Of a stretch of DNA of 64,000 bases, positions 2,156 to 42,133 are shown piece by piece. Both the position numbers and the translations under genes were made by a program. Source of the DNA: Acidobacteriota bacterium (GTDB lineage Bacteria; Acidobacteriota; Vicinamibacteria; Marinacidobacterales; Marinacidobacteraceae); contig JAJEFG010000107.1 in the NCBI GenBank assembly GCA_022820545.1, positions 29,579-93,578 of the forward strand. The letters are read 5' to 3'. Numbering within the stretch: the stretch's first letter is position 1; each line of letters begins with the position of its first letter. The notes under the pieces are model-generated. The model searched no databases. It saw only the letters and a list, made by a program, of their open reading frames with translations, and had not been told where the DNA came from.

Positions 2156-4777
2156 ATGAGCAGGTTCTCGAGCTGCCATTTGGTCTGTCTGCTGGGCGCC
2201 TCAGTCCTGGCCGGGGGTTGCGGTCAGGATTCGGTGGCGCCGTCGTCCACGTTCCCGCGTCGCGCACTTCCGGGAGATCCGGTACGGGATTGGCTCGACG
2301 CCAACGGCAAGCCGTTCGAGGGTCCCCACCTCTCGCTTCCCCACCAGGAACTGGAGTTCATGAGGGAACTGGTGGGCGACGCACGCATCGTCTCCCTGGG
2401 TGAGAACACCCACGGGGCTCGCGACTTCTTCGAGATGAAGGCCCGCGTGCTGCGCTTCCTGGTGGAGGAGATGGGGTTCAACACCTTCGGCATCGAAGCC
2501 ACCTGGCCGGAGGCTCGGCTTCTGGACCGGTACGTTCGGACCGGCGAGGGTGACGCAAGGGAGCTGCTCCAGGGTCTCTTCTTCTGGACCTGGCGGACCG
2601 AGTCGGTGCTCGAGATGATCGAGTGGATGCGCGCCCACAACGAGGCGGGCGGCGACGTCGGGTTTCACGGCTTCGACATGCAGTTCCCCGGCCTCGCGCT
2701 CGAGAACGTGCGCGCCTATTTCCGCGAGGTGGATCCCGATCGGGTCGGGATCGTCAACGAACACATCCAGTGCCTCGACGCCTTCGCGAACGACGAAAGG
2801 GGACGGTTCCCGACTCGGCGTTACGCCAGCCAGCCCCTCGCCTATCAACGAGACTGCGCTGCTTCACTGCAGGAGGTCCGCAACCTGCTGTTCGTGAGGC
2901 GGGCGCAGTACGAGGCCGCTTCGGGCACGGACGCGTTCGAGGTCGCCCTCCAGAGCTTGCGCGTCGCCGTTCAATACCACCTCGATGAGACAGGCGAACA
3001 GGATCGCGACGAATCCATGGCGGAAAACGTCGGCTGGATCAGCGACCGGATCGGGCCGGACGGGCGAATGGTCCTCTGGGCCCACAACTACCACGTCTCC
3101 ACGCAGGAGGGGGCCCAGGGTCATTTCATGCGGCAGCGCTTCGGGGACGACATGGTGGTGGTCGGTTTCAGCCACGCCCGCGGCCACTTCACCGCGGTTA
3201 CCCGGACTGGGTCGCAGTACCGGGGACTGGCCGAGCACGAACTCGACGAGCCCGTCGAGGGCTCCTTCGAGAGCTATCTGGAGAGGGCCTCCGCGCCCCG
3301 GTTCGTGCTCGATCTCCGGGACCTGGGCACGATCTCGGCGGGAAACTCATGGCTCACGGAGACGCGGCCGTTCCGCGGCATCGGCGCCGTCTACGACCCC
3401 GACGCACCCGGTGACTATTGGCATGAGGCCCCGCTCCGGGAGTGGTACGACGTGATCATCCACTTCGAGTCCACGCGCGCGACCGCGGTGCTGCCGACGG
3501 TGACGCCGAGACCCGAACCAGTTCCCGACCCGACGGCCGCCGAGGAGTGGATCGAAACCAGTGCCGTGCCGTTCCACGGCACTCACTTCTCCCTCCCGCA
3601 CCGCGATCTTGCCGGCGTCGGGGAGGTGGTTGGCGAGGCCCGCATCGTCGCCCTCGGCGAGAACACCTACGGCACCCGCGACTTCCACCAGATGAAGGCC
3701 CGCCTCTTTCGCTATCTCGTGGAAGAGAAGGGTTTCGACACGTTCGCGCTGGAGGGCGCCTGGCCGGAGACCCGCCTCCTGAACCGCTACCTGCAAACCG
3801 GCGAGGGAGACCCCCACAGGCTGCTGTCCGGAATGCACTTCTGGGTGTGGAGATCCGAGTCCATGCTCGAACTCATCAAGTGGATGCGGGCCTACAACGA
3901 AGACGGAGGCCACCTGGAATTCCATGGATTCGACATGCAGTACCCGGGACTGGCGCTCAGGAACGTCCGCGAGTACCTGCGTTCGGTGGATCCCGAACGC
4001 GCGGCGTCGGTGGAGGCCGATCTCAACTGTCTCGAGACCTTTGCCAACGACCACACCGGACGGTTCCCCAGTTCACGATACGCCGATCAGACCGAGATCT
4101 ACCGGTCCGCCTGCGGGGATTCGCTCGAGGCGGTGCGGGAAGACCTGGTCGCGAACCGGAACGCATACGAAGCGGCATCCGATGAGGATGCCTTCGCGGT
4201 AGCGCTCCAAAGCCTGCGGGTGGCGGTTCAGTACCACCTGATGTTTGCCCGCGAGCAGTCGCGCTCGGAGTCCATGGCCGAGAACATCGCCTGGATCAAC
4301 GGGCGCGTCGGGCCGGGCGGTGGGCTGGTCCTTTGGGCCCACAACTCCCATTTCGCGCGAAATCCCGCCGCCACGGGGTTTCACCTGCACGAGATGTTCG
4401 GGGACGATCTGCTCAGCGTCGCCTTCGGCCACGAAAGCGGGCAGTTCACGGCTGTCACTCGCCGGGGATCGGAGTACGTCGGCCAAATGGTGAACGAGTT
4501 GAGCCCTCCAATTCCCCACTCGTTCGAGTACTACCTGGCGGGCGCCTCCGCGTCCCGTCTGGTACTCGACCTGCGCACCTGGGACGCGAGTTCGCCGGGC
4601 AGTGCCTGGCTCGGCGACCTCCGTCCGTTCCGCAACATCGGTTGCTGCTACGACCCTGACACCCCGGAGAGTTACTGGCGCTCGATTCCCTTGGCACGTT
4701 GGTACGACGTGCTCATCTTCTTCAAGACGACCCGGCCTGCCGTGGTGCTTCCCGCACTCACCCCGGATCCCTGGTAA
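2156..4777 (+). CDS. Lipoprotein with two tandem erythromycin-esterase-family (Ere/PF05139-like) domains
   Basis: This is the in-frame internal start of ORF 1118..4777. MSRFSSCHLVCLLGASVLAGGCGQDS has a lipobox (LAGGC). There are two ~400-aa repeats, each carrying an LGENTHGxxxF(F/H) motif, MKAR..R(F/Y)LVEE.GF.TF, WAHN.H and VAFGHxxG. The 5' 1 kb of the ORF is antisense to the DUF1028 gene. Confidence 0.7.
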   Translation: MSRFSSCHLVCLLGASVLAGGCGQDSVAPSSTFPRRALPGDPVRDWLDANGKPFEGPHLSLPHQELEFMRELVGDARIVSLGENTHGARDFFEMKARVLRFLVEEMGFNTFGIEATWPEARLLDRYVRTGEGDARELLQGLFFWTWRTESVLEMIEWMRAHNEAGGDVGFHGFDMQFPGLALENVRAYFREVDPDRVGIVNEHIQCLDAFANDERGRFPTRRYASQPLAYQRDCAASLQEVRNLLFVRRAQYEAASGTDAFEVALQSLRVAVQYHLDETGEQDRDESMAENVGWISDRIGPDGRMVLWAHNYHVSTQEGAQGHFMRQRFGDDMVVVGFSHARGHFTAVTRTGSQYRGLAEHELDEPVEGSFESYLERASAPRFVLDLRDLGTISAGNSWLTETRPFRGIGAVYDPDAPGDYWHEAPLREWYDVIIHFESTRATAVLPTVTPRPEPVPDPTAAEEWIETSAVPFHGTHFSLPHRDLAGVGEVVGEARIVALGENTYGTRDFHQMKARLFRYLVEEKGFDTFALEGAWPETRLLNRYLQTGEGDPHRLLSGMHFWVWRSESMLELIKWMRAYNEDGGHLEFHGFDMQYPGLALRNVREYLRSVDPERAASVEADLNCLETFANDHTGRFPSSRYADQTEIYRSACGDSLEAVREDLVANRNAYEAASDEDAFAVALQSLRVAVQYHLMFAREQSRSESMAENIAWINGRVGPGGGLVLWAHNSHFARNPAATGFHLHEMFGDDLLSVAFGHESGQFTAVTRRGSEYVGQMVNELSPPIPHSFEYYLAGASASRLVLDLRTWDASSPGSAWLGDLRPFRNIGCCYDPDTPESYWRSIPLARWYDVLIFFKTTRPAVVLPALTPDPW

Positions 4778-6576: not shown

Positions 6577-6696
6577 GACTGGGAGCCCCAGTCAAACGGG
6601 AACCCTGAACCGGTGACGCGGCGCTCCCGGGCGGTGACGCCGGGCGGGGAAGTGGTGTGCCCACCCGGACCGGTCGTCAGTGGGGGTAACGGGGAG

Positions 6697-6750
6697 CGGT
6701 TTCGACCGCCTCTCGGCGGTCGATGCCGGCCGGAGGCCGGCGCTCCGAGC
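6697..6750 (+). repeat. REP-like GC-rich palindromic element, family A copy 1
   Basis: GGTTTCGACCGCC-TCTC-GGCGGTCGA is a 5' hairpin. It is followed by the core GATGCCGGCCGGAGGCCGGCGCTCCGAGC, which contains the hairpin GCCGGCC-GGA-GGCCGGC. The same core recurs at 33162, 46911 and, inverted, at 42103. Confidence 0.7.
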
Positions 6751-7695
6751 TCAGATTGCGGCCAGGCGAGCCGTCGGGCCGTGAAGGACCTCGACGTAGG
6801 CGCCGGCCGGCACCTCGGCGGAGACGACGGCCAGCGAGAGGCCGGCGGGACCGCCCCAGCCCTCCGGGCGGCGCACGGCGCTCGTGACCCGGCCGGCGGG
6901 AGCAGCCTGAAACAGGACGACCGAATCCGCCGCCGGCGCGAATTCCTCGTCGAACTCCAGCCGGCGCAGGACACGGGGAATCCGGCCCCGATGCGCCTGC
7001 CGCGCCACGTACTCCTGGCCGATGTAGCACCCCCTGCCGAGGCGGACGTGCGCGGCCAGCCCGCTCTGGAGGGGCAGGGCCCGTTCGTCGAGTTCGGCGC
7101 CCCACCGCGGCTCGCCGGCAAGGATCCGGAGGTACTCCTGTTCTTCGGGCGACGCTTCCACGGACTCCCCGCCGTCCTCGATCAGGTCCCGGAAGGACAT
7201 GCGGCCGCCGGTCCGGAGTCCGATGTGGACCATCGTCTTCGCCGTCCAGGGCCGGAAATCCCGGCGGACGAACCCGACTCCGGTTTCCACCACCCAACCC
7301 GGCGAACCCGGATCCGGCCGGCCGGGACTGGGACCGGCGTCCGTGCAGACGATCTCGAAGTCGCCGCGCTCCGCGAGCGCGATCTCCACGTCGTCCGCGA
7401 TCCGGTACCGGTCCAGCGCCGCCGCGAGCGCCTGCTCGCGGGTCCGCTCGCATTCGAGGAGCACCGCCCCGTTCGTGACCGTCGCGACCGCCGGGGCGAT
7501 GAGGTTGCCTCGCGGGCCGAGGAGGGCGGTCCGCGCGGCGCCGGGAGCCCCCGGCAGCTCGCCGGACATGATGCGCGTGAGGAACCCGATCCGGTCGTTC
7601 CCGGTGACGACCACGATCCCCCGGCTGCCCGTTTGCACCGAAAAGCGGGGATCGCCGCCCGGAAACTGCGGGACTTGGGGTGTGGAATCCTCCAT
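6751..7695 (-). CDS. YgfZ/GcvT-like folate-binding protein
   Basis: This is the C-terminal 314 aa of the 1444-aa ORF 6751..11085(-), starting MEDSTPQVPQFPGG. GAGGA lies 9 nt upstream. The remainder of the ORF is antisense to the + strand genes. Confidence 0.6.
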   Translation of the reverse strand: MEDSTPQVPQFPGGDPRFSVQTGSRGIVVVTGNDRIGFLTRIMSGELPGAPGAARTALLGPRGNLIAPAVATVTNGAVLLECERTREQALAAALDRYRIADDVEIALAERGDFEIVCTDAGPSPGRPDPGSPGWVVETGVGFVRRDFRPWTAKTMVHIGLRTGGRMSFRDLIEDGGESVEASPEEQEYLRILAGEPRWGAELDERALPLQSGLAAHVRLGRGCYIGQEYVARQAHRGRIPRVLRRLEFDEEFAPAADSVVLFQAAPAGRVTSAVRRPEGWGGPAGLSLAVVSAEVPAGAYVEVLHGPTARLAAI

Positions 7696-11813: not shown

Positions 11814-12947
11814 GTGATCCAGGACCCCTTCGGCGTCTTCCTGGCGCTCGCCGGGGCGGTCTTCCTGGCGGTCTGGCTCGAGGGGCGCTACCGCTTCTTC
11901 CGCGCCATGAGCGCGGGCCTCATGTGCCTCGTGTTCGGGATGATCCTGTCGAACTCCGGGCTCCTGCCCGGGGACGCGGAGGCCTACTACCAGCTCGGCA
12001 ACATCTGGGTGAACGCCGCGATCGTGCTGGTGCTCCTCAATGTGGACCTTCGCACCCTCCTGGCCGCGGGGAAGCCCATGCTGGGGGCGTTCGGCATCGG
12101 CGCCGCCGGCACCATGCTGGGGACGGCGGTCGCCACGTTCCTGCTCGCCGGCGCCATCGGCCCCGAGACCTGGAAGCTCACCGGGCAGTTCACCGGGACC
12201 TACATCGGCGGCGGGGCGAACTTCTACGCGCTCGCCAGCGCCTTCGGGACCGATCCGAGCATCATGTCCGGGGCGGTCGCGGCCGACGTGATCGTCACCG
12301 CCTGCTGGCTCGCGACCTGCCTCGTCATCCCGGCGCTCCTCTACGGCGGGAAGGGGCTCGACCCGGTCCGGAAGGGCGATGCCCCGATGACGCTCGAGCA
12401 GCGGCTCAAGGAGAGCGGCGAGAGCCTGCGGATGATGGACTTCTTCGGGCTCTCCGCGATCACGCTCGGGGCGATGGTGGCGGCGCAGTTCCTGGGGGCC
12501 GCGGTCCCGGCGGTCCCGGCGGTGCTCTGGCTGACCAGCATCGCGCTCGTGCTCGGCCACACGCCGCCGGTCCGCAAGCTCCGGGGCGCCCCGGTCCTCG
12601 GCAACTCGCTGCTCTACCTGTTCCTCGCCGGGAACGGCGCCCAGTCGCTGGTCTCGGAGATGCTGGCCTACGGGCCGTCGCTGTTCTTCTACGCGCTGAT
12701 CACGGTGGGGATCCACGGGCTCGTGATCTTCGGCATCGGCCGGCTGCTCCGGTTCGATGCGGGGACGCTGGTGGTGGCGTCGCAGGCCAACATCGGCGGC
12801 GCCGCCTCGGCGGTGGCCATCGCCACCGCGCGCGGCTACGGGGACAAGCTGCTGCCGGGGATCGCGGTGGCGCTCGGCGGCTACGCGTTCGGGAACTACC
12901 TCGGGTTCGGGATGGGGACCCTGGCGCGGACGCTGCTCGGGGGATGA
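11814..12947 (+). CDS. DUF819-family polytopic membrane protein, paralog 1
   Basis: GTG start, (M)IQDPFGVFLALAGAVFLAVWLE. 377 aa, hydrophobic throughout. Confidence 0.65.
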   Translation: MIQDPFGVFLALAGAVFLAVWLEGRYRFFRAMSAGLMCLVFGMILSNSGLLPGDAEAYYQLGNIWVNAAIVLVLLNVDLRTLLAAGKPMLGAFGIGAAGTMLGTAVATFLLAGAIGPETWKLTGQFTGTYIGGGANFYALASAFGTDPSIMSGAVAADVIVTACWLATCLVIPALLYGGKGLDPVRKGDAPMTLEQRLKESGESLRMMDFFGLSAITLGAMVAAQFLGAAVPAVPAVLWLTSIALVLGHTPPVRKLRGAPVLGNSLLYLFLAGNGAQSLVSEMLAYGPSLFFYALITVGIHGLVIFGIGRLLRFDAGTLVVASQANIGGAASAVAIATARGYGDKLLPGIAVALGGYAFGNYLGFGMGTLARTLLGG

Positions 12948-12960
12948 GAAAGGGCTCTCA

Positions 12961-14094
12961 TTGATCCAGGACCCCTTCGGGATCTTCCTGGCGCTCGCCG
13001 CGTCGGTGTTCCTCGCCGTCTGGCTGGAGCGCAACTACCGCTTCTTCCGGTCGCTGAGCGCGGGGCTGCTGTGCCTCGTGTTCGGAATGGTGCTCTCGAA
13101 TACCGGGATCCTGGTAGGCGAGGCGGAGAGTTACGAGCAGATCTCGAACATCTGGATCAACGCCGCGATCGTGCTCGTGCTCCTGAACGTGGACCTGCGG
13201 GCGGTCCGGAAAGCCGGGAAGGCGATGCTCACCGCGTTCGGGCTCGGGGCGGTCGGAACCATGCTGGGGACCTTCCTCGCGACGGTCCTGCTGGCCGATG
13301 CGCTGGGTCCGGAGGCGTGGAAGCTCACCGGCCAGTTCACCGGGACCTACATCGGGGGCAGCGCCAACTTCTACGCCCTCGCCGCGGCCTTCGACACGGA
13401 TCCGAACCTCATGTCGGGGGCGCTCGCCGCCGACGTGATCGTGACCAGCATCTGGCTCGCCGCCTGTATCGCGATTCCGGCGCTGCTGCGGGGAGGGAGA
13501 GATCTCGATCCGCCCGGCCCGCGCGACGGGCCCCTGACGCTCGAACAGCGGCTCAACGAGAGCGGCGAGAGCGTGCGGATGCTCGATTTCTTCGGGCTGG
13601 TGGCGATCACGCTCGGAACCATGGTCGCGTCGCGCCTGATCGGGGCGGCGTGGCCGGTCATCCCGTCGGTTCTCTGGCTGACGACGATCACGCTCGTCCT
13701 CGGCCACCTCGGCCCGGTGCGGAAGCTCCGGGGGGCGCCGGTGCTCGGGAACTCGCTCCTCTACCTGTTCCTCGCCGCGAACGGGGCCCGGTCCCTGGTC
13801 TCCGAGATGTTCGCCGCCGGAGCGGTGCTGTTCTGGTTCGCGGCCCTCATCGTCGCCGTTCACGGACTCGTGATCTTCGGGGTGGGACGGCTGCTCCGGA
13901 TCGAGGCCGGGACCCTCTCGGTGGCGTCCCAGGCGAACATCGGCGGCGCCGCCTCGGAGGTGGCGATCGCCTCCGCCCGCGGCTATGCGGTCCAGATGCT
14001 CCCGGGCATCGCGGTGGCGCTCGCCGGCTACGCGGTCGGGAACTACTTCGGGTTCGGGATGGGGGTGCTCGCGCGGTCGCTGCTCGGGGGGTGA
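12961..14094 (+). CDS. DUF819-family polytopic membrane protein, paralog 2
   Basis: TTG start, in frame within ORF 12757..14094, with (M)IQDPFGIFLALAASVFLAVWLE. About 70% identical to paralog 1 over the full length. GAAAGGG lies 7 nt upstream. Confidence 0.65.
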   Translation: MIQDPFGIFLALAASVFLAVWLERNYRFFRSLSAGLLCLVFGMVLSNTGILVGEAESYEQISNIWINAAIVLVLLNVDLRAVRKAGKAMLTAFGLGAVGTMLGTFLATVLLADALGPEAWKLTGQFTGTYIGGSANFYALAAAFDTDPNLMSGALAADVIVTSIWLAACIAIPALLRGGRDLDPPGPRDGPLTLEQRLNESGESVRMLDFFGLVAITLGTMVASRLIGAAWPVIPSVLWLTTITLVLGHLGPVRKLRGAPVLGNSLLYLFLAANGARSLVSEMFAAGAVLFWFAALIVAVHGLVIFGVGRLLRIEAGTLSVASQANIGGAASEVAIASARGYAVQMLPGIAVALAGYAVGNYFGFGMGVLARSLLGG

Positions 14095-15246: not shown

Positions 15247-15448
15247 GCCGGGCGATTCTCGCAGCAGCGTCCGCGAGGAGGCCGTACCCGCGGCGATCAG
15301 CGGCAATCGGTTTCGCGGCCCTCCCGGGCGGCGGCGCCGGTCTGAAAGCCCCCACCGGGAGACACCGTCATGTTCGGTGCACCAGCACGCCCCGCCGCTC
15401 ATGAAGGTGCGCGGCGGGACGCTGAGCCTTCGGTGGCAGGGACGGTTT

Positions 15449-15474
15449 GGAACGCCGGCTTCAGCCGGCACAGC
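15449..15474 (+). repeat. REP-like element family B copy (GGAACGCCGGCTTCAGCCGGCACAGC), left arm of inverted pair
   Basis: It contains the GCCGGC-TTCA-GCCGGC hairpin and is followed by the palindrome GCCCGCC-GCA-GGCGGGC (15472-15488). Confidence 0.7.
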
Positions 15475-15578
15475 CCGCCGCAGGCGGGCGGCGAGACGGA
15501 CCTCATTCGCCGGGATGGCTCGACCGTGTGCGCCAATGCACCCGGGTAGCGACGGAACCGCCCGCGGCCCTGCGGGCC

Positions 15579-15604
15579 GCTGTGCCGGCTGAAGCCGGCG
15601 TTCC
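15579..15604 (-). repeat. REP-like element family B copy, right arm (exact reverse complement of 15449-15474)
   Basis: GCTGTGCCGGCTGAAGCCGGCGTTCC is a perfect 26-bp inverted copy. It is preceded by the hairpin GCCCGC-GGCCCT-GCGGGC. Confidence 0.7.
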
Positions 15605-15648
15605 AAGCCAGCGGCGTCCTCACGGCTGTTGGCCCGCCGGCGCTTCCC

Positions 15649-21530
<5,882 letters not shown>

Positions 21531-21691
21531 AGCTGGTTCATTGCTGTGGTCGCCCCGACACCGTCTAGCATCGAAAGATGGTGGCTTGGCAGTCTCGCTG
21601 TTGGAACGGGCTCACCACTCTCGTTGCCCGCATAGTGAACTGCCGGCCATTCGTGTGTGTCACCGCGTACTTTGCCAAAGGAGCACAATCC

Positions 21692-22177
21692 TTGACCGAT
21701 TCGACCGAAAGACATTCTGGACGTTCCAGCTATCGGGAACTACTGATTGAGAAGCGATTCCTCAGCGATCTGCTCGCCGAGTTGTGGCCCGAAGAGGTTG
21801 AAGTGCTCCGGCCCGACGTGGACATTGCGGGATACGACCTCGTGCTAGAGGCCCGCGGGTCTATGCGTCATCTCCAACTCAAGTCGGCGCTCCGATCCGT
21901 ACGCAAAAACAATCGCAGCGTGAGGGGAAGACTCGCCCAAAAGCCTGCGGGCTGTGTCCTCTGTATCGTGATAGACGACAAGCTGGAGCCGAAGAGATAC
22001 CGATGGTTTGGCAACGGTCCGGGAGAGAGGCTGAACTTGCGCGGGTTCGACAAGGCGTGCGATCCCAAGACCAAAAAGGAGAGGCTGGACACCTACACCG
22101 TGCCTCCTGAGGAATTTGTCGAACTGGAAGGGATCAAGGACGTGATCGAGAAACTGTTTGGACCGAAAACGGCGTAG
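21692..22177 (+). CDS. Small PD-(D/E)xK-type (Hjc/YraN-like) putative nuclease, low-GC horizontally acquired gene
   Basis: This is an in-frame TTG start within ORF 21578..22177, with AAGGAG 8 nt upstream. A putative catalytic core E..(16 aa)..DIAGYD..(9 aa)..LQLK is present. The gene is ~55% GC and K-rich in a ~70% GC background. Confidence 0.45.
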   Translation: MTDSTERHSGRSSYRELLIEKRFLSDLLAELWPEEVEVLRPDVDIAGYDLVLEARGSMRHLQLKSALRSVRKNNRSVRGRLAQKPAGCVLCIVIDDKLEPKRYRWFGNGPGERLNLRGFDKACDPKTKKERLDTYTVPPEEFVELEGIKDVIEKLFGPKTA

Positions 22178-23550: not shown

Positions 23551-23925
23551 TCATGGCTCCCTTACCCGGCTTCGCAGCCACGGCTCCAGGTTCTCGAAAC
23601 GGAAGGTTCCGGTTTCGTAGAGCCGGGAAACGAAGCCGAAGACATCATCGGAATCGGCTTCCAGATGTGCACCGTTGATTGCCAGGAACGTGTGCATCAC
23701 GGCGAACGCCGTCCGTTTGTTTCCGTCCAGGAACGGATGATTCTGCGAGAGGCTCTCCCACAGCGCCGCCGCCTCCTCGATGAGGTCGGCGTAGTAGCCG
23801 GTCCGGGGCCGGTAGAGGGCCGCTTCGAGGAGACCGGGATCCCGGATCCCGTGTGTTCCCCCGTACTCCTCGATCTGATCGAAGTGAATGGCGAGGACTT
23901 CCGCAAACGTCGGACAGTCGCTCAC
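23551..23925 (-). CDS. doc: Doc (death-on-curing) Fic-family toxin
   Basis: This is the C-terminal 124 aa of ORF 23551..24345(-). The Fic motif is HPFLDGNKRTAFAVMHTFL. The GTG start overlaps the antitoxin stop (GTGA). Confidence 0.75.
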   Translation of the reverse strand: MSDCPTFAEVLAIHFDQIEEYGGTHGIRDPGLLEAALYRPRTGYYADLIEEAAALWESLSQNHPFLDGNKRTAFAVMHTFLAINGAHLEADSDDVFGFVSRLYETGTFRFENLEPWLRSRVREP

Positions 23926-24182
23926 TTCGCGAGCTTCTTGTAGAGCTCGCCGTACTTGTCGCGGCTCTCCAGATAGGCCTCCATGACGTGGGGACGGGGC
24001 CGGCCCTGGTTGCGCTTGTCGATCAGATCTCGAAGCGCCTCGTCCACCAGTGCCTGGATCTGGCGGCCTTCCTGCGCCGCGATCTTGCGCACCTTGGCCA
24101 AGGTCTCCGGTTCGACCTGGGTGGCGAATTTCTGGCGAGACGTGGGCAAGGGTCGCTTCTCCTGGTCGGGCATACGTGTCAT
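23922..24182 (-). CDS. RHH/CopG-type antitoxin partnered with Doc
   Basis: 86-aa ORF. The RHH-like segment is FATQVEPETLAKVRKIAAQEGRQIQALVDEALRDLI. It lies immediately upstream of Doc and overlaps it. Confidence 0.65.
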   Translation of the reverse strand: MTRMPDQEKRPLPTSRQKFATQVEPETLAKVRKIAAQEGRQIQALVDEALRDLIDKRNQGRPRPHVMEAYLESRDKYGELYKKLAK

Positions 24183-29944: not shown

Positions 29945-30196
29945 ATGAGTATGAAGCGGCTGCAAGTGGTCATGTCAGACGAAGAACTCGACGGTTTTCA
30001 CCAGACTGCTCGCGCCGAGGGACTGCGCCTTTCCGAATGGGTTCGCCGCACGCTCCGCGCTGCCCGTCAGGCGGCGTCGGCCGAACGGATTGAGCGAAAG
30101 CTGCAGGCGATCGAAGCTGCGGCGAACTGGAAAGCCCCGACTGCGGACCCGGAACAGATGCTTGCCGAGATCGAGGCCGGACGCCTTGCCGATTGA
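29945..30196 (+). CDS. vapB: VapB-type RHH antitoxin
   Basis: 83 aa. The RHH segment is KRLQVVMSDEELDGFHQTARAEGLRLSEWVRRTLRAA. It overlaps vapC (TTGA). Confidence 0.7.
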   Translation: MSMKRLQVVMSDEELDGFHQTARAEGLRLSEWVRRTLRAARQAASAERIERKLQAIEAAANWKAPTADPEQMLAEIEAGRLAD

Positions 30197-30597
30197 CCTT
30201 CGTTGACTCGAACGTCCCGATGTACCTCGTCGGGAAAGAACATCCCCGCCGGGAAGATGCCGTGCGCGCCCTGGCGGAGCTTGTGCGGCAGACCGAACCG
30301 CTGGTGAGCAGCGCCGAGGTTGTACAGGAAATCCTGCACCGGTATCACGCGATCGGTCGCCGTGAATTCGTCCAACCGGCGATCCGGTTGCTGTTGGAAC
30401 TGACCGAGGGGGACATCTTTCCGGCGACCCTGAACGACACGCTGCGAGCTGGCGAACTGCTCGTCTCGTTCCCGGAAATCTCCTCCCGCGACGCGGTGCA
30501 TCTCGCCGTCATGGAGAGTCGCGGCGTTTCCCGGATCCTCTCGTTCGATCGCGGTTTTGACGTCGCTACCGGGATCGAGCGGATTCCCGACTTCTGA
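30193..30597 (+). CDS. vapC: VapC PIN-domain toxin
   Basis: TTG start. FVDSNVPMY carries the first Asp of the PIN domain; EV, HLAVME and LSFDRGFD carry the remaining acidic residues. Confidence 0.8.
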   Translation: MTFVDSNVPMYLVGKEHPRREDAVRALAELVRQTEPLVSSAEVVQEILHRYHAIGRREFVQPAIRLLLELTEGDIFPATLNDTLRAGELLVSFPEISSRDAVHLAVMESRGVSRILSFDRGFDVATGIERIPDF

Positions 30598-30612
30598 GCG
30601 GGATCCCAGCCC

Positions 30613-31584
30613 CTAACCGCTGTCCCGGACGGCCTCGGTGACCAGCGGAATCACCTCCAGCGCGTCACCGACGATCCCCACGTCGGCCGCGCCGAAGATG
30701 GGGGCGTCGGGGTCCTTGTTGATGGCCACCACGAACCGGGAGCCGCGCATGCCCACGAGGTGCTGGATGGCGCCGGAGATGGCGCAGGCGACGTAGAGCT
30801 TCGGCGACACGGTGGCGCCGCTCGAGCCGATCTGGAGCTCGTGAGGAAGCCAGCCGGCGTCGGTCACCGCCCGGGAAGCCCCGACCACGCCGCCGAGCGC
30901 CGCCGCCAGTTCGTGCACGATGTCGAGGTTCTCGGGACCGCCGAGGCCGCGGCCGGCCGCCACCACCACGTCCGCCGCCGTCAGGTCCACCCCGCCGGCG
31001 CCCGCGTCCCGGACCTCGACGAGGCGCGAACGCAGATCGCCGGGGCCCACGGGGGAGGGGAGGATGCGCACGGAGAGCGCCGGCCCCGGTTCCCGGGCCG
31101 GGAAGGCCCCGCGCTCCACCGTCGCCACCGCGGGGAGGCCGGGCGCCTCCACCTCCTGGACGAACTTCCCGAGAAAGGCGGAACGCCTCGCGACGAGTCC
31201 GTCCCCGCGCCAGGAAAGCGCCGACACGGCGGTGGCGGCGGCGGTTCCCAGCCGCGCCGCGACCAGCGGCGCGACGTCCCAACCGACCGGGTCGTGGGGC
31301 AAGAGGACGCACTCGGCGCCGCTCGCTTCCCGGGCGTGCAGCACCGCGGCGGCGGTCCCGTCCGCGGTCGGGGACGCGTGGGCCGGCCCTTCCACCAGCA
31401 GGAGTTCCCCCGCCGGCAGGACCTCGCGCAGCCCCTCGGCCTCGCTGGCGTCACCGACCGGGAGGACGGCGCTCACCCGGTCCGGCCCGCCGGCGAGCCG
31501 GGAAGCGGCCTCGATCAGTTCGTAGCTGGCGTCAGTGACGCCGCTTTCGCTCCGCTCGGCGAGGGTGAGGACCCGGCGGCTCAT
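30613..31584 (-). CDS. etfA: Electron transfer flavoprotein alpha subunit
   Basis: This is the C-terminal 323 aa of ORF 30613..32145(-), starting [11 protein letters not shown]. The FAD-binding C-terminus is [28 protein letters not shown]. The ATGA overlaps etfB. Confidence 0.85.
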
Positions 31585-32360
31585 GCCGTGTCTCCGGGAA
31601 AGGAGACTCCGGCGCCGGCCCGCATCCGGGGAACGAGCGCCGCCGCCGCCTCCTGGGGGGACCCCGGGAGGATCTCGGCGCTGGCGCCGCGTTCGGGCCT
31701 GCCGAGCGTCAGCCGCCGAAGCCCGCCGCCGTCCGCGGGAGCGGCGAGTTCGACGCGCTCCACCGGCTTGCGCCGCGAGGCCATGATGCCGCGGAGACTC
31801 GCGTAGCGCGGGGTGTTGATGCCGGTCTGGACGGCCACCACCGCCGGCAGGCGGAGTTCGACGACCGCGATCCGGCCGCCTTCGAGTTCGCGGTGCGCCT
31901 CGAGGCGCCCGTCCCGGAACTGCAGTCCGGTGGCGGCGGAGGCGAACGAGAAGCCGAGCAGGCCCGCCACCAGCCCTCCCACCTGTCCGTGGCCGCTGTC
32001 CTCGGCAAGGAGGCCGGCAAACACCACCCCGGCGTCGAGTCCGGAAACGGCGCCCGCGAGCGCCCGCGCCACGAAGAAGGGATCGGCGAGGTGCGCGCGA
32101 TCGGTCACCAGATGCACTCCGCGGTCCACTCCCATCGCGAGGCAACTCCGGAGCACCTGGCCGGCGTCCGCCGGGCCGGCGGTCACCGCCACGGTCTCCG
32201 CCGCGTGTCCGGCCTCTTTCAGCGCCAGGGCCGCCTCGACGGCGTAGCGGTCGTAGTCGTTGATGCCGTAACCGAGGCTGGATTCGTCGATCCAGTCACC
32301 CGCCGGGCGAAAGGCGGAGTTGCGGTCGGGAACCTGCTTGACGAGAGCGACGGCGTTCAT
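31581..32360 (-). CDS. etfB: Electron transfer flavoprotein beta subunit
   Basis: 259 aa; MNAVALVKQVPD is the EtfB N-terminus. Confidence 0.85.
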   Translation of the reverse strand: MNAVALVKQVPDRNSAFRPAGDWIDESSLGYGINDYDRYAVEAALALKEAGHAAETVAVTAGPADAGQVLRSCLAMGVDRGVHLVTDRAHLADPFFVARALAGAVSGLDAGVVFAGLLAEDSGHGQVGGLVAGLLGFSFASAATGLQFRDGRLEAHRELEGGRIAVVELRLPAVVAVQTGINTPRYASLRGIMASRRKPVERVELAAPADGGGLRRLTLGRPERGASAEILPGSPQEAAAALVPRMRAGAGVSFPGDTA

Positions 32361-32374
32361 GGAATTCGGGCCGT

Positions 32375-32995
32375 ATGATCGCCGCGCTAGCGTCCGGGGG
32401 CAAGGTGAGCGGCAAAGTCCCGAGAGGGTCCTACGTGGTGGCGGGGATCCTCGCGCTCGCGACCGGGCTCGGCCTGCTCGCGGTCGCCGGGAAGCCGACC
32501 GCCATCCGGCGGCCGGACCCGGTGGACCGTCCGGTCCTGCTGATCCCGGACTTCGACAACCGCACCGGCCGCGGCGAGTTCACCCCCCTGGCGCGACAAC
32601 TCACCGACGCGGTGCGGGCGCGTCTCGCGCGGGATCCGGGCGGCATCTTCCAACTGTCGCCGCGGCGGCTCCGCCCGGCTTTCGGTCCCTCGGAACGCGA
32701 GGAAGGGCTGGTGGGGATAGCCGCCCGCCTCGGTGCGGACTACGTCCTCGCCGGCAGCCTCGAATCGGGCCCGGGGGAACCGCTCGGCCCGGGTTCGTCC
32801 TGGACGCCTCCGCGCGAGGCCCGCGGCGGCGGCGAGGAGATCCGCCTCGACGTCCTCCTGGTGCGGGACTCGGACCCGCCCCACGTGTTCGCCGAACGCT
32901 TCCTGCTGGGGTCGCCGAACCCGGAAGAGGCCGAGGACCGGCAACTCGCGGACTGGGTCGGCGAGCGGATCGCACTCTCCCTCAGCCGCCCGTGA
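32375..32995 (+). CDS. Membrane-anchored protein with TolB-N-terminal-like/LpoB-like domain
   Basis: A TM anchor SYVVAGILALATGLGLLAVAG is followed by VLLIPDFDNRTGRGEFTPLARQLTD and LGADYVLAGSLE. Confidence 0.4.
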   Translation: MIAALASGGKVSGKVPRGSYVVAGILALATGLGLLAVAGKPTAIRRPDPVDRPVLLIPDFDNRTGRGEFTPLARQLTDAVRARLARDPGGIFQLSPRRLRPAFGPSEREEGLVGIAARLGADYVLAGSLESGPGEPLGPGSSWTPPREARGGGEEIRLDVLLVRDSDPPHVFAERFLLGSPNPEEAEDRQLADWVGERIALSLSRP

Positions 32996-33161
32996 CACGC
33001 CCGTCCGTCCGGCGCGTGCACCCAGCGATAGCCCGACCCTCCGGGACGTCGCCGAGATCAGGTCAGGTGGATCGCGAGTGGCACGCCGGTGAGCGCATCA
33101 CGTCGCGGTAAGGCACCCGTCCTGCGGGTCGGAAGGGGGGAGCGTCGTCTCGCGTTTCGCC

Positions 33162-33214
33162 TCGCTGCGCTCGGCGATGCCGGCCGGATTGCCGGCGCTC
33201 CGAGCCATAGCGCC
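33162..33214 (+). repeat. REP-like element family A copy 2
   Basis: GCGTTTCGCCTCGCTGCGCTCGGCGATGCCGGCCGGATTGCCGGCGCTCCGAGC. It lies in the convergent intergenic spacer. Confidence 0.7.
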
Positions 33215-33240
33215 ACGATTCCCGCCGGAGGCGGCGGTCC

Positions 33241-34500
33241 CTACCGCAGTCGGACCCGGTCCCAGGCGTCCCAGGCCGAGGTGTCCGAGAGGATGATCTC
33301 GTCGCCCTCGGCGAGCCCGGCCAGGACCTCGATGCGGTTCACCGAGCCCCGGCCGAGCTCCACCGGCACGCGCTCCGCGGTCTCCCCGTCGGGGGCGATC
33401 CGGAAGAGGCCGACCGTGCTCCCCGGCTGGCCGTAGGCCGGCCGGCCGACGTGGAGCGCGTCCGGGATCCGGTCCAGCTCGATCGTGCCGTCCACCGAGA
33501 GGTCCGGACGGGCGCCCCGGGGAAGCTCGCCGGCGATCGCGATGTCCACGGCCACCGTCCCCTCGCGCACCGCGGGGTCCACCCGGGAGACGACGCCCTC
33601 CACGACCCCGTTCCGCGTGTCCACCAGCGCCGGCTGGCCCGGTTCGACGTCGCGCGCCTGCGTCTCGGCGATCCGCAGCACCGCCTTGAGTTCCCGGGGG
33701 TCCGCCACCCGCGCGAGGTTCGCTCCCGGGCTCACCTCCTGGCCGACCTCGACCGGCACCTCCAGGAGCGTTCCGGCGCGTCCGGCCCGCACGGTGAGGG
33801 CGGCGAGCTGCCGCCGGCGGAGTTCCAGGACCGCCCGGTAGCGCGCGACGGTCGCTTCCTTGGAGGCGACCTGCGCCTCGCTCGAGTCGGCGAGGATGGC
33901 GAGGCGCTCTTTCTCGAGCGCGTGGCGGGTCTCCAGTTCCTCGGCGCTCACCTGGCTCCGGCGGTGAATCAGTTCCCCGACCAGTCCCGCCTCGAAGAGC
34001 TTGCGGTCCGCATCCGCGCGGCGGCGCGCCTGGGCCGAGGAAGCGGCGAGCTGGCCGGCGGCGTTCTCCTGCTCCAGCAGGTCGGAACGCGTCTGGTCGA
34101 GCAGCCGCCGGAGTTCCGCCTGCTCGGCGCGGAGCTGGAGTTCGGCCTCGCGGGTCTGCTGTTCGAGTTCGGGATTCGAGAGGACGAGCAGCACGGTGTC
34201 CTCCTCCACCGGGGTTCCGGGGAGCACCCGGCGCTCCTCGACCCGGCCGCGGGTCTCGGCGGCCAGCCAGCGGATCTGTTCGGGCGGGACCTGGAGGCTG
34301 CCCGGTCCCCGGACCTGTCGGATCAGCTCGCCCCGTTCGACGACCCCGGTCCAGACGACCGAGCGGTCCACTTCGGGCGCGCCGGGAGCGATCCGGCCGA
34401 GCAGGATCACCGCGATCAGCAGCGCGGCGGCGCCGCCCCCAGCCAGCATCAGTCGCCGGACGCGGCGTTTCCGCTGCCGGTCGGCGATCTGGAAGTCCAC
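33241..34500 (-). CDS. HlyD-family membrane fusion protein / periplasmic adaptor subunit
   Basis: GTG start with GGAGG 4 nt upstream. A basic N-terminal tail leads into a TM helix (MLAGGGAAALLIAVILLG), then a coiled-coil, then a beta-barrel (TVAVDIAIAGELP). Confidence 0.7.
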   Translation of the reverse strand: MDFQIADRQRKRRVRRLMLAGGGAAALLIAVILLGRIAPGAPEVDRSVVWTGVVERGELIRQVRGPGSLQVPPEQIRWLAAETRGRVEERRVLPGTPVEEDTVLLVLSNPELEQQTREAELQLRAEQAELRRLLDQTRSDLLEQENAAGQLAASSAQARRRADADRKLFEAGLVGELIHRRSQVSAEELETRHALEKERLAILADSSEAQVASKEATVARYRAVLELRRRQLAALTVRAGRAGTLLEVPVEVGQEVSPGANLARVADPRELKAVLRIAETQARDVEPGQPALVDTRNGVVEGVVSRVDPAVREGTVAVDIAIAGELPRGARPDLSVDGTIELDRIPDALHVGRPAYGQPGSTVGLFRIAPDGETAERVPVELGRGSVNRIEVLAGLAEGDEIILSDTSAWDAWDRVRLR

Positions 34501-34520
34501 GCTGCCTCCGCGCTCGTTCC

Positions 34521-36365
34521 CTAGTCGAAGAAGAGTCCCGGCAGCGCCAGGGTCAGGTAAGGGATGTAGGTCACGAGCAGTACCGCGCCCGCCCGGATCA
34601 GCAGGAACGGCACCGAGGCGCGATAGACCTCCCCGAGCGGCCGCTTGAACCGGTAGGAGGCGAGGAAGAGGTTCATCCCCACCGGCGGCGTCAGGTAGCC
34701 GAGCTCCAGGTTCGTGAGGAAGATGACCCCGAGGTGCAGGGGGTCGATGCCGAAGGCGAGTCCGAGCGGCGCGACCAGGGGCACCACGACCACGATGGCC
34801 GAGTAGATGTCCATGAGGCAGCCGACGATCAGCAGGAAGATGTTCAGCAGGAGCAGGAAGAAGAGCGGCGAGGCCACGAACGACTGCACCCAGTCGATCG
34901 CCATCCCCGGGATGTCGGCGAAGATCAGGTAGTTCGTGAGCCCGAGCGCGGCGCCCAGGATGAGCAGCACGCCGCCGATCAGGGTCACCGCGTTGGCCCC
35001 GGTGCGGACCAGATCGGAGAACGTCTTCCCCTCGCGGTGGATCACGAACTCGATGAACAGGGCGTAGAGGACGGTGATGGCGGCGGCTTCCACGAGCGTC
35101 GCGATCCCGCCGAGCATCACGCCGATGACCACGAAGGGGATGGAGGCCTCCCACTTCGCGGTCCAGAGCGCCCGCGCCGCCTCCCCGATCCGGAAGGACG
35201 AGGTAGTCCCCTTGAAGCGTTGGCCCGCGAAACGCCGGGTCACCAGGATCGTGAACCCGGCCACCAGCACGATCTGGAGGGCGGAGGGAATCAGTCCGGC
35301 CACGAAGAGCCGCGGAATGTCCACCTCGGCGACGATCGCGTAGAGGATGACGGCGACCGAGGGGGGAATGAGGAGGCCGAGCGAGCCCGCCGCGGTCAGG
35401 AGTCCGGTCGCGAACTTGGGGCGGTGGCCGTCGGCGAGCAGCAGGGGGAACATCAGGCCGCCCATCGCCAGGATGGTGACGCCGCTGCCCCCGGTGAAAC
35501 AGGTGAAGAACGCGGACATCACGATCGCCACCACCGCCACCCCGCCCGGCATCCAGCCGAAGACGCCGCGGAAGAGCACCACGAGGCGCTTGGGCGCGCC
35601 GCCCTCCGCGAGGATGTAGCCCGCGAGGGTGAAGAGCGGAATCGTCGGCAGCATGGGCTTCGTGACCATGCTGTAGGCCTCGGCGGGAATCGCCGCGACC
35701 GGGTCCCAGTTGCTCCACAGCAGCACCGCGGCAGCGCCGCCGAGCGCCACGAAGATCGGCGCCCCGAACGCCGCGGCGATCAGGATGAGGGCGAGCAGCG
35801 GCCATTCGATGCCGTATCCGGTGAGGTCCCACCCGGTGAGCCCCTCGTGGAGCAGCAGGGGAACCGCGAGGCCGAGGACCGCGGTCCAGCGGCCCCAGGC
35901 GGTCGGGACCCGCCGCCAGAGCCGCCAGGCGATCAGCAGGAAGCCGACCGGCATGACGGCCACGGCGGCCCAGACCGGGACGCCGAGCGCCAGTTCCCGG
36001 CCGCCCTCCCACTCGGCCCGGGTGAGCACCACGCTGGCGTAGGAGAGCGTGACCGACACCACGACCCCGACCGCGCCCGACAGCGACAGGAGGCGCGGCC
36101 TCCAGACCTCGGACACCATGCTCGGGCCGGCGCTCAGCGAGAGCAGCTCGCCCCGGCGGGACGCCACCGCCGCCCCCAGGAAGGCGACCCAGAGCGTCAG
36201 GTGCTGCACCCACATGAACGAGCCCGGGATGCCCGTCGGATAGACCGGACGGATGAGCGCCTCGGTGATCGGGATCGCCGCCATGAGGACGAGCGCGCCG
36301 ACCGAGATCGCGTCCTCGAAGACCGCGAGGCGGCTCCGGGGCGGACCGGCGGTTCCTTCCGGCAT
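34521..36365 (-). CDS. TRAP transporter fused permease (DctQ-DctM fusion)
   Basis: ORF 34521..36407(-). The internal Met start (MPEGTAG) has GGAGG 8 nt upstream. A 4-TM DctQ-like N-terminus precedes a DctM-like 12-TM region. Confidence 0.8.
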   Translation of the reverse strand: MPEGTAGPPRSRLAVFEDAISVGALVLMAAIPITEALIRPVYPTGIPGSFMWVQHLTLWVAFLGAAVASRRGELLSLSAGPSMVSEVWRPRLLSLSGAVGVVVSVTLSYASVVLTRAEWEGGRELALGVPVWAAVAVMPVGFLLIAWRLWRRVPTAWGRWTAVLGLAVPLLLHEGLTGWDLTGYGIEWPLLALILIAAAFGAPIFVALGGAAAVLLWSNWDPVAAIPAEAYSMVTKPMLPTIPLFTLAGYILAEGGAPKRLVVLFRGVFGWMPGGVAVVAIVMSAFFTCFTGGSGVTILAMGGLMFPLLLADGHRPKFATGLLTAAGSLGLLIPPSVAVILYAIVAEVDIPRLFVAGLIPSALQIVLVAGFTILVTRRFAGQRFKGTTSSFRIGEAARALWTAKWEASIPFVVIGVMLGGIATLVEAAAITVLYALFIEFVIHREGKTFSDLVRTGANAVTLIGGVLLILGAALGLTNYLIFADIPGMAIDWVQSFVASPLFFLLLLNIFLLIVGCLMDIYSAIVVVVPLVAPLGLAFGIDPLHLGVIFLTNLELGYLTPPVGMNLFLASYRFKRPLGEVYRASVPFLLIRAGAVLLVTYIPYLTLALPGLFFD

Positions 36366-36448
36366 GCCGGCGGCCTCCGGGAGGGCCCCTGCGGCGTCCG
36401 GACTCATGGCTCCCCGGGGCGGACTCCGCGGGTCAGCCCGCGGCGGGG

Positions 36449-37474
36449 CTACTCATTGGCGGCCCGGTACTCGTCGCGCAGCCGGATCATGCGGTCGAAC
36501 ACCGGAGGGGAGACGAGCTGCTCCCGGACCAGCGGGAAGAGCTTCTCCGCGGTCTCCATCCAGGCGCTTTCGAACGCGGAGGAGGCCTCGATCACCTCGA
36601 GACCCCGCGACTTCATCGCCGCGAGCGACTTCCGCTCCTGCTCGCGGTTGGTCTCGCGGAACGATTCCGCCGCCTCGTTGCTCTTGCGGAGCACCACCTC
36701 CTGCTGGGACGCGTCGAGCCGTTCCCAACCCTGCTCGTGCACGATGATGGCGCCCTGCAGCGGCGCCCAGGGGAGGTCGTTCATGAACTTGGCCGAGCGG
36801 TAGATCTGGGACCCCTCCGCGAGCACGATCGGCAGCGGGACGGCCTCGATGAGTCCGGTCTGGAAGCCGCTCACCAGCTCGACCGAACTGATCTGGACCG
36901 GGTCGAAGCCCGACCAGCGCAGGAGATCGAGGACCGTCTGGTCGTTCGAGGCGCCCGCCAGCTTCAGCGCCTGCAGGTCTTCGAGGGTGTTGACGGGGTC
37001 GCTCGCGAAGAAGTGGAGCCAGCCCACGTCGGCCCAGGCGATGACCTGGAACCCGTGCCCGCTCAGCGTTTCGGCGATCGCCGGGTTCATGGCCTCCCGG
37101 ACGTGGTCCCATTCGGGGTAGTCGCGGAACACCATCGGGATGGAGAGCGTCCAGGCGCTCGGGTCCAGTTCGGCGAGTCCCACGTTGGAGACCGCGGCCA
37201 TCTGGACCTGGCCGAGCCGCATCTTGCTGATCATCGCGGTTTCGTCGCCGGCGGCGCCCCCGGCGATGATGCGGATCCGCACCTCGCCGCCGGTCTCGCG
37301 GCCGATCTCGGCGGCCATCTTGTCGAGGATCAGGTGGTAGGCGGACCCCCGGGGCGCGACGGTCGCGAGGCGCAGGTTGACCCGCGCCTCGGCGGCGGCC
37401 GCGGGCAGGACGAGGGCGAGAGCCACGAGCGCGACGCTCCGGCCAGCCGGAAGGAACTTTCTGACGTTCGGCAT
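36449..37474 (-). CDS. dctP: TRAP transporter substrate-binding protein (DctP family)
   Basis: This is the C-terminal 341 aa of ORF 36449..37939(-), starting MPNVRKFLPAGRSVALVALALVLPAAAAEA (signal peptide). DctP fold. Confidence 0.8.
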   Translation of the reverse strand: MPNVRKFLPAGRSVALVALALVLPAAAAEARVNLRLATVAPRGSAYHLILDKMAAEIGRETGGEVRIRIIAGGAAGDETAMISKMRLGQVQMAAVSNVGLAELDPSAWTLSIPMVFRDYPEWDHVREAMNPAIAETLSGHGFQVIAWADVGWLHFFASDPVNTLEDLQALKLAGASNDQTVLDLLRWSGFDPVQISSVELVSGFQTGLIEAVPLPIVLAEGSQIYRSAKFMNDLPWAPLQGAIIVHEQGWERLDASQQEVVLRKSNEAAESFRETNREQERKSLAAMKSRGLEVIEASSAFESAWMETAEKLFPLVREQLVSPPVFDRMIRLRDEYRAANE

Positions 37475-37494
37475 AAGGGAATTCTCTGCTGTTT

Positions 37495-38436: not shown

Positions 38437-38518
38437 GACGGCGGAAGGTTACTCCGCGGGCGGGTTCCGTCCGGCGCCCGGACGCCCGCGCCAGCGAGCG
38501 GGTAGCCTTGTTCGCCGC

Positions 38519-39076: not shown

Positions 39077-39090
39077 GGTCGCATGGCGCC

Positions 39091-39142
39091 GCCGGCTTGG
39101 AACGCCGGTCTCCAGACCGGCACCGCAGCGCTCCGCGCTGCG
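39091..39142 (+). repeat. Cluster of GC hairpins related to REP family B (GCCGGCTTGGAACGCCGG; GCCGGTCT-CC-AGACCGGC; CAGCGC-TCC-GCGCTG)
   Basis: The hairpins lie in the intergenic region upstream of the molybdo-oxidoreductase operon. Confidence 0.55.
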
Positions 39143-39228
39143 CACCGCACGGCCTTGACGTGCAGGATGACGCGCGGGAGGCATAGGATGTTGACGGACA
39201 ATCCTCCGCGCGGAGGGGAGAGACATCG

Positions 39229-42086: not shown

Positions 42087-42102
42087 CCGCCGGAGGGTCC
42101 GT

Positions 42103-42133
42103 TCGGAGCGCCGGCCTCCGGCCGGCATCGCGG
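42103..42133 (-). repeat. REP-like element family A copy (reverse orientation)
   Basis: The reverse complement reads GCGATGCCGGCCGGAGGCCGGCGCTCCGAAC. It lies in a convergent intergenic spacer. Confidence 0.7.

Follow-up and report, generated by a model that had tools for sequence, protein, structure and literature searches.

Dispersed Modular Hairpin Repeats of the REP Type in Sponge-Associated Vicinamibacteria

Do the GC-rich palindromes that recur between the genes of an Acidobacteriota genome belong to one dispersed repeat family, and if so, what spreads them and what keeps them where they are? The question is raised by a 64,000-nt stretch of contig JAJEFG010000107.1 (positions 29,579 to 93,578; hereafter the window), in which an earlier note, made from the sequence alone, had recognized a palindromic element of about 50 bp at four sites and assigned it to a genome-wide family of repetitive extragenic palindromes (REPs). 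We find that the element, here called family A, is one part of a larger modular superfamily than that note saw, made of dispersed, extragenic hairpin repeats that show gain and loss, tandem amplification, replacement and a marked polarity toward stop codons. Family A is probably a branch of a clade-specific superfamily resembling REPs and bacterial interspersed mosaic elements (BIMEs), mobilized by a nuclease of the HuH-Y1 type and surviving downstream of genes.

Four family A units in the window

The 26-nt core of the element, GATGCCGGCCGGAGGCCGGCGCTCCG, matches the window exactly at 6722-6747(+), 46935-46960(+) and 42104-42129(-), while the remaining copy (33176-33203) departs from it only in the loop, with GGATT in place of GGA; the four copies originally counted are thus three exact copies and one loop variant. 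No match to the core occurred in 100 dinucleotide-preserving shuffles of the window, and the proposed fold, GCCGGCC-GGA-GGCCGGC, was confirmed in the window sequence. A covariance model built from 15 gap-free units delimits the complete units, in which a head is followed by two hairpins (HP1 and HP2) and a tail:

6695-6752, plus strand: family A copy 1, whole unit (81.5 bits, E = 1e-21)
6699-6704, plus strand: head of copy 1, GTTTCG
6702-6723, plus strand: HP1 of copy 1, TCGACCGCC TCTC GGCGGTCGA
6725-6741, plus strand: HP2 of copy 1, GCCGGCC GGA GGCCGGC
6742-6748, plus strand: tail of copy 1, GCTCCGA, 2 nt before the stop codon of the gene at 6751-7638(-)
33150-33207, plus strand: family A copy 2, whole unit (45.4 bits)
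33179-33196, plus strand: HP2 of copy 2, loop variant GCCGGC CGGATT GCCGGC
33197-33203, plus strand: tail of copy 2, 37 nt from the stop codon of the HlyD-like gene at 33241-34500(-)
46909-46965, plus strand: family A copy 3, whole unit (52.5 bits)
42099-42155, minus strand: family A copy 4, inverted, whole unit (65.0 bits)

Genes were called with a codon-usage model trained on the window and the flanking open reading frames (ORFs) were checked against Pfam, which bore out the claims that every copy is intergenic (4/4) and that three of them lie between convergent genes. Copy 2 is placed between an unnamed ORF (32375-32995(+)) and the HlyD-like gene; copy 3 has the TatA gene (46632-46859(+)) on its head side and a convergent MBL-fold hydrolase gene (46961-48040(-)) on the other, with its tail adjoining the stop codon of the latter (46961-46963); and copy 4 lies between a MoCo-binding dehydrogenase gene (39705-42086(+)), whose stop codon (42084-42086) is 16 nt from the tail, and a sulfatase gene. 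Copy 1 has only minus-strand genes around it, with a small RHH gene and RmuC at one end and an unnamed 295-aa ORF at the other. Copy 4 is inverted as described, with an extent that needs correction from 42103-42133 to 42099-42155(-).

The copies differ mainly in HP1. Copy 1 does carry a different 5' hairpin (TCGACCGCC/GGCGGTCGA) from that of copies 2 and 3, which have a common HP1 type (GTTTCGCCTCGCTGCGCTCGGCGA; stem TCGCC-TC-GC/GC-TC-GGCGA) that in copy 2 contains a TC/CT internal loop, and HP1 of copy 4 reads TCGCGGCCC TGG GGGCCGCGA. The 30-bp 5' module that had been described for copies 2 and 3 is indeed common to both; it is not additional, because a head and a variable HP1 are present in every unit. 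Copy 1 is predicted to fold as RNA with -35.9 kcal/mol (z = -2.9), and its ortholog in L055 has the core without any change (loci compared with the window are designated by L and a number). Rfam 15 gave no match in the window at gathering scores, and with permissive E-values all matches stayed below 18 bits, against gathering cut-offs of at least 35; neither tRNA nor tmRNA genes were found in the window.

Palindromes of the GCCGGC type are common in DNA of 70% GC, and the window has about that composition, so a chance origin had to be considered. Low-scoring look-alikes do occur, at window 58484-58542, in L058 and in some other metagenome contigs, and the supposed degenerate relative of the element (58495-58521) reaches no more than 13.6 bits under the covariance model (E = 0.079), indistinguishable from background. 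Against this, no core match is expected by chance, and hundreds of full-length units have one and the same architecture. Origin as pieces of a duplicated gene is contradicted by the intergenic position of the copies and by their unrelated flanking genes; fragments of a gene they are therefore not. We regard chance and gene duplication alike as refuted.

Distribution among sponge-associated Vicinamibacteria

A scan of one genome per species with a core pattern allowing 1-5 loop bases recovered at least 99 core-bearing 8-kb blocks, all but one of them from metagenome-assembled genomes (MAGs) of Acidobacteriota/Vicinamibacteria, in about 12 species; the blocks are scattered along complete chromosomes, and on one of these, OZ220713.1, they occur at positions from 64 kb to 3.14 Mb. 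A complete metagenome scan added 79 core-bearing stretches, whereas a scan of viral contigs for the core gave 0 matches. The prediction of a genome-wide REP-like family in a high-GC lineage outside the proteobacteria is therefore upheld: the element is not restricted to the window, and its hosts are Acidobacteriota. Where the habitat was looked up it was a sponge: the MKWU and LXNJ contigs among these stretches belong to metagenomes of Mediterranean sponges, and Aplysina aerophoba is the source of bin61 (MPMW; PMC5099237, PMC5649159). The window itself is syntenic with contigs of SB0668_bin_14 and bin61 at 87-92%. In 811 kb of loci plus the window the covariance model recognized 223 units at E <= 1e-3, while a single "Anaerolineae" match and those in other metagenomes (L106, L127, L128, L143 and L173) scored 20-33 bits and correspond to HP2 alone. 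The repeats are thus specific to one clade, the sponge-associated Vicinamibacteria.

Unit anatomy and conservation of structure

The conserved family A module is 57-58 nt long and consists of GTTTCG, the variable HP1, CGAT, the near-constant HP2 and GCTCCGA; it occupies the 3' end of a unit of 75-100 nt. HP1 has 71 distinct sequences among 124 copies, mostly perfect stems of 6-9 bp, in which the closing pairs (T-A, C-G and G-C) are conserved and the distal stem varies among copies yet remains paired. MAFFT placed this variable stem out of register, and a model-guided alignment of 150 units was used instead. In that alignment, which is biased towards the structure of the model itself, 96.3% of cells are paired, as compared with 84.9% after shuffling and 28-55% with slid partners, and changes on both sides were seen in 11 of 16 pairs (236 cells). 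Double changes in HP2 include GCCAGCC/GGCTGGC, GCCGACC/GGTCGGC and GCCGGTC/GACCGGC. Both hairpins therefore keep their pairing through compensatory changes.

G.T and A.C mismatches are both rare and equally frequent (15 vs 15) and thus give no sign of wobble pairing on a particular RNA strand, and the two orientations fold alike as RNA (-35.9 and -35.0 kcal/mol, z about -3). HP1 contains a symmetric 2x2 TC/CT internal loop in about 19% of units. On the complementary strand, this loop becomes a tandem 5'-GA/3'-AG mismatch within CGCC-GA-CC-GCA-GG-GA-GGCG, and tandem GA/GA loops are a stabilizing mismatch motif in established thermodynamics. The GA/GA loop therefore suggests that it is the complementary strand that is structured. 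On that strand family A reads T-CGGA-GC-[7-bp stem, 3-nt loop]-AT-[HP1']-AAAC.

The constancy of the core might also reflect a duplex site for a host protein, such as a nucleoid protein or a gyrase- or IHF-type factor as proposed for the BIMEs of E. coli, or an uptake or recombination signal, with selection on the 26-28-nt core, and not transposition, keeping the copies uniform. In keeping with this, the core is identical in about 12 species whose coding DNA is only 83-94% identical, the invariance is genuine in two window/ortholog pairs, both of which involve the unselected window, and units coincide with synteny breaks. Nevertheless, retrieval by exact match accounts for much of the invariance, no candidate protein is at hand, and the discrete insertions and tandem amplification described below call for a spreading mechanism in any case. 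Moreover, because the stem changes within the core are compensatory, it is the hairpin rather than the duplex sequence that seems to matter. We consider a protein site highly unlikely as the primary explanation.

A sister family and further units in the window

The covariance model also uncovered a sister family, B, built on the same plan, with HP2 reading GCCGGC TGAA GCCGGC or GCCGGTC TGGA GACCGGC and a GTTCCAA tail (GTTCCAAGCC). Its units in the window, together with one decayed unit, are:

39093-39149, minus strand: family B unit with HP2 GCCGGTC TGGA GACCGGC and tail GTTCCAAGCC (37.7 bits)
15443-15496, minus strand: family B unit, left half of a head-to-head dimer (33.9 bits)
15556-15610, plus strand: family B unit, right half of the same dimer (34.0 bits)
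15306-15349, plus strand: decayed partial unit (21.4 bits, E = 4e-4)

About 20 nt separate the tail of the unit at 39093-39149(-) from the stop of the gene at 38546-39076(+), and this unit is missing from the orthologous spacer in L023. The right half of the dimer has its tail about 42 nt from the stop codon of the GH2 gene at 15649-19524(-). The decayed unit has kept its head and an HP1-like hairpin, with a disrupted HP2 followed by a small module, CCCCCACCGGGAGA. With four A units, three B units and one decayed unit, the window holds 7-8 units per 64 kb. In related loci, which were not chosen for family B, the two families are about equally abundant. Two MAG contigs have long homopolymer runs of G or C beside family B units near their ends (L088:1-60 and L092:6470-6530); these are probably assembly artefacts at repeat-induced contig breaks.

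Gain, loss and replacement of units

Comparison of orthologous spacers shows that units come and go as discrete pieces of 73-103 nt. In the clean filled/empty pair, L082 carries a 103-nt insert that L061 lacks, flanked on each side by GAA (TTC); within the insert, the 58-nt module is preceded by about 45 nt that are variable, rich in G and in part able to form hairpins, which sets the unit at about 100 nt. In a second case, an extra 73-nt family B unit is present in L085 and L002 and missing from L041, with no duplication. At one end the clean inserts read TGGTGGCGTCAC... (L082) or GCGTCATGACGC... (L085), and at the opposite end ...GGCGCTCCGA; these ends are not inverted repeats.

These data bear on the possibility that the units are miniature inverted-repeat transposable elements (MITEs), that is, cut-and-paste deletion derivatives of an insertion sequence with a DDE-type transposase, recognizable by inverted repeats at their termini and by duplications of the target site of constant length. 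A size of 73-103 nt is typical of MITEs, and the one clean insertion with a 3-nt direct duplication (GAA/TTC) is what such an origin would leave. The ends lacking inverted repeats and the difference between L085 and L041 without a duplication speak against it, as does the outcome of our scans, in which neither the HuH-Y1 searches of all ORFs nor Pfam scans of 29 ORFs turned up a transposase gene or a parent insertion sequence whose ends match. A MITE origin is, in our judgment, most improbable.

Units also multiply and replace one another in situ. A spacer with one unit in one species may hold three to five in another, and L134:6193-7101 consists of 5.6 tandem repeats with a period of 165 nt and 94% identity, each with one A and one B unit. 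This array stands directly 3' of a gene's stop codon, in sense orientation. CRISPR and attC readings of the repeats were rejected, as the "spacers" of the array repeat at 94% identity and no cas or intI gene came to light among those genes near units that were scanned with Pfam. In two orthologous pairs, L007/L010 and L035/L001, A and B are swapped such that HP2 and the tail are exchanged while HP1 and the flanks are still homologous, a pattern suggestive of conversion among copies or of renewed insertion at hot spots. Synteny of the window with L055 and L023 stops exactly at the head ends of units (window 6692 and 42161), so the repeats coincide with boundaries of rearrangement or replacement.

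Several units carry a 20-nt mini-module, CCCCCACCGGGAGAACTGGGG, itself a small hairpin, between HP1 and HP2. It occurs at L082:5560-5600 (compared with L061), in L032, L054 and L087 and at window 15340-15362, while the orthologous unit lacks it, and it has the look of an insertion nested in the repeat. In addition, a lower-GC island encoding a Fic/DOC toxin and an RHH antitoxin occupies window 23551-24149, where the syntenic spacer of L005 holds a family A unit instead. The occurrence of either in one divergent spacer marks it as an insertion hot spot.

Polarity toward stop codons

Intergenic restriction, which had been proposed as a check on the family, is pronounced. In the genome loci 118 of 124 family A cores are intergenic, while gene calls cover 84% of the DNA, and in the metagenome loci the count is 103 of 105; overall, 95-98% of copies are intergenic in DNA that is about 80% coding sequence. 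The units are also oriented. In the genome loci a gene's 3' end lies on the tail side (GCTCCGA) in 90 cases and a 5' end in 26 (p = 2e-9), about half of the 90 being within 30 nt of the stop codon; the counts in the metagenome loci, a set not fully independent of the first, are 71 versus 16. The tail thus faces a stop codon about 80% of the time, whereas the head side is without bias (57 vs 45). Between co-directional genes, 34 copies are antisense and 14 sense to transcription (p = 0.006), and between convergent genes the tail is the nearer end in 31 of 42 cases (medians 37.5 vs 115 nt). In the window, the tail is 0-42 nt from a stop codon in six of seven units.

This polarity favors the main rival explanation, according to which the units are selected cis-acting RNA elements of 3' untranslated regions (UTRs), either lineage-specific terminators free of U-tracts or barriers to 3' exonucleases, each retained at its site for that role, and their repetitiveness is secondary. 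A tail or foot placed 0-40 nt past stop codons with a defined polarity, compensatory changes that maintain both hairpins, a very stable gene-sense fold (-35 kcal/mol, z = -3.35) and a GA/GA loop on the mRNA-sense strand of the adjacent gene would all be expected of such elements. Furthermore, canonical hairpin-plus-U terminators are not above chance in the part of the window that was scanned (30000-49999; 5 found vs 5.5 expected). On the other hand, a unit is present at only about 7 of the window's roughly 53 gene ends; units occur also in divergent promoter regions (L005 and L082), in sense orientation and in arrays of 5-6; and their presence, number and family differ between orthologous spacers. 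Nor do the equal counts of G.T and A.C mismatches indicate strand-specific wobble, and neither hairpin is followed by a U-tract in either orientation. We therefore consider a primary role as 3' UTR elements unlikely, albeit less so than the other rival explanations.

Like the units, intrinsic terminators have one or more GC-rich hairpins at a distance of between a few and some tens of nucleotides from a stop codon, on its 3' side. Unlike them, the units recur as one sequence at hundreds of unrelated genes and in arrays. We rejected this class for the units, as their hairpins are followed by GCUCCGA or CGAAAC rather than a U-tract and the terminator scan flagged none of them.

Relationship to REP systems

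The units conform in several respects to REPs of known kinds. According to published rules, a REP has a fully paired stem of 7 bp or more with a GC-rich base and a loop of 2-5 nt, and a foot at a distance of 0-2 nt from that stem (PMC6006769). HP2, with its 7-bp stem GCCGGCC/GGCCGGC and 3-nt loop, has such a hairpin, and the copies are many, dispersed and overwhelmingly extragenic. The tetranucleotide GT[AG]G is absent: the complementary-strand foot, 2 nt from HP2, is CGGA in family A and TGGA in family B, and the conserved flanks on the given strand are GTTTCG and CGAT. As in the canonical REPs and BIMEs of E. coli and Pseudomonas, a 4-nt foot lies 0-2 nt from a short GC-rich hairpin, copies are extragenic, numerous and enriched between convergent genes, they occur in mosaics with other small motifs and as head-to-head dimers, and their stems vary in a compensatory manner; a subclass 2.7 REP of D. 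tiedjei, GTAGTG GCCGGC CTCCGT GCCGGC, has almost the same hairpin as the complement of HP2. In contrast to the canonical systems, the foot here is CGGA/TGGA, each unit joins two different hairpins in a fixed tandem, the polarity toward stop codons is strong, and single units and head-to-tail arrays outnumber inverted dimers, which were seen at window 15443-15610 and in L013, L014, L056 and L075. A further difference is that no REP-associated tyrosine transposase (RAYT) was identified here in 1.46 Mb.

The units also resemble the REP-like elements of class 3 HuH-Y1 genes. These genes are known from Acidobacteria, Planctomycetes and some Proteobacteria and are flanked by atypical structures with a CnGA foot (PMC6006769); hosts of the REP-like elements include Solibacter usitatus (about 600 copies), Planctomyces limnophilus and Legionella (Quentin et al. 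2018, PMC6006769). The published hairpin, GCCGC-GA-CC-GTNA-GG-GA-GCGG, directly follows the foot, and CGGAGCCGCGACCGTAAGGGAGCG is an example of a full sequence (Table S1 of PMC6006769). The family A foot, CGGA, fits CnGA, and CGGAGC is common to both; the GA/GA form of HP1' has the same plan, most of the bases and the CC/GG upper stem; and both kinds are present in hundreds of dispersed copies in Acidobacteria. The hosts here are of another class, Vicinamibacteria, and sponge-associated, and the GA/GA form is confined to about 19% of units, the rest having perfect stems. The CGTC-tagged REPs (Di Nocera et al. 2013, PMC3733652) resemble our units as dispersed palindromes beside which no dedicated transposase is found; their stem and loop sizes differ and the units have no first-position A/T pairs. 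Membership in that group was rejected, as the CGTC tag, the 8-9-bp stem starting with A/T and the CCA tail are all missing from the consensus.

Our literature search on the sequence and on REP elements in Acidobacteria and sponge symbionts found no earlier description of the family. It is a new family of a known kind, lineage-specific REP-like elements, and not a new type of system.

A proposed model for mobility and persistence

On the basis of these likenesses, the units would be mobilized in trans, as single-strand DNA hairpins, by an HuH-Y1 nuclease that is RAYT-like and probably of class 3. By analogy with other REP systems, the nuclease may recognize the CGGA foot together with HP2. Gene conversion between copies could add to their uniformity, and copies would persist mainly just downstream of genes, where GC-rich hairpins are presumably harmless or mildly useful, possibly as transcript 3'-end structures free of U-tracts.

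A number of observations weigh against this model. Searches of 1.46 Mb of element-bearing DNA (about 10,200 six-frame ORFs) by phmmer with E. coli RayT, with an IS200 TnpA sequence and with motif expressions that included those of class 3 (NHVH ... YV[VI]xEQ) yielded no ORF of the HuH-Y1 type. No class 3 gene near units came to light in the same sample, which by a rough estimate covers a few percent of all copies, so that the absence is only weak evidence. The ORFs between inverted pairs of units are ordinary (among them PCMT, glyoxalase, DUF420 and MNT/HEPN). As to the units themselves, HP2 always separates the foot from the GA/GA hairpin, in contrast to class 3 REPs, and a search among the units for a CGGA foot abutting a GA/GA hairpin found none; the family B foot, TGGA, is not of the CnGA form. 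With a single clean insertion site to go by, the evidence on the target and on a possible duplication of 3 nt is anecdotal. The strand of the elements is weakly linked to local GC skew (70/124), so there is no clear lagging-strand signature. Finally, the invariance of the core is partly an artefact of retrieval by exact match: units anchored by their heads comprise 111 exact cores and 25 near-exact variants.

A PLSDB search with the published class 3 REP sequences found dispersed copies in records of Legionella adelaidensis; no transposase lies alongside these, and their orientation is mixed (3 sense, 2 antisense). The records in question (L183-L187, NCTC12735, filed as plasmids) carry the atp operon, dnaK and lysS and look like pieces of the chromosome; in them the copies are intergenic and near gene ends.

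A more specific proposal is that class-3-type REPs are set foot-first 0-40 nt behind stop codons, either because an enzyme of the HuH type directs insertion to where transcription or translation units end, or because the clade has domesticated them as a transcript-end signal free of U-tracts. We hold this to be decidedly unlikely. If it were true, the variable second hairpin would be free to diversify, and the placement would be the first functional or targeting rule for the obscure class 3 HuH system.

Whatever its mover, the superfamily defines, by a covariance model and unit boundaries, a REP-like system for Vicinamibacteria sponge symbionts, a group represented by MAGs only. The units mark synteny breakpoints and variable spacers and are therefore relevant to assembly, binning and the annotation of gene 3' ends, and the likeness to class 3 HuH-Y1 REPs offers a testable lead on a little-studied nuclease class. 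Should the polarity toward stop codons reflect targeting or function, it would give a handle on transcription termination in a phylum whose terminators are undescribed; otherwise, the superfamily would be an ordinary selfish repeat family.

Other features of the window

Several further features of the window lie outside the repeats. Two adjacent DUF819 paralogues (11814-14094) encode 377 aa each and are 78% identical over the 300-nt stretch of DNA compared. The erythromycin-esterase-family gene at 2360-4777 has an internal duplication, with two Erythro_esteras stretches at a repeat spacing of 1257 nt. A CTC/CTT-rich low-complexity stretch (17182-17287) in the GH2 beta-galactosidase-like gene(-) is predicted to encode a Glu-rich linker. 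A low-GC ORF of 199 aa (21578-22177), situated in a 437-nt gap after a gene cluster, has a weak match to PD-(D/E)XK endonucleases (E = 4e-4) and may be a foreign or defense-related gene.

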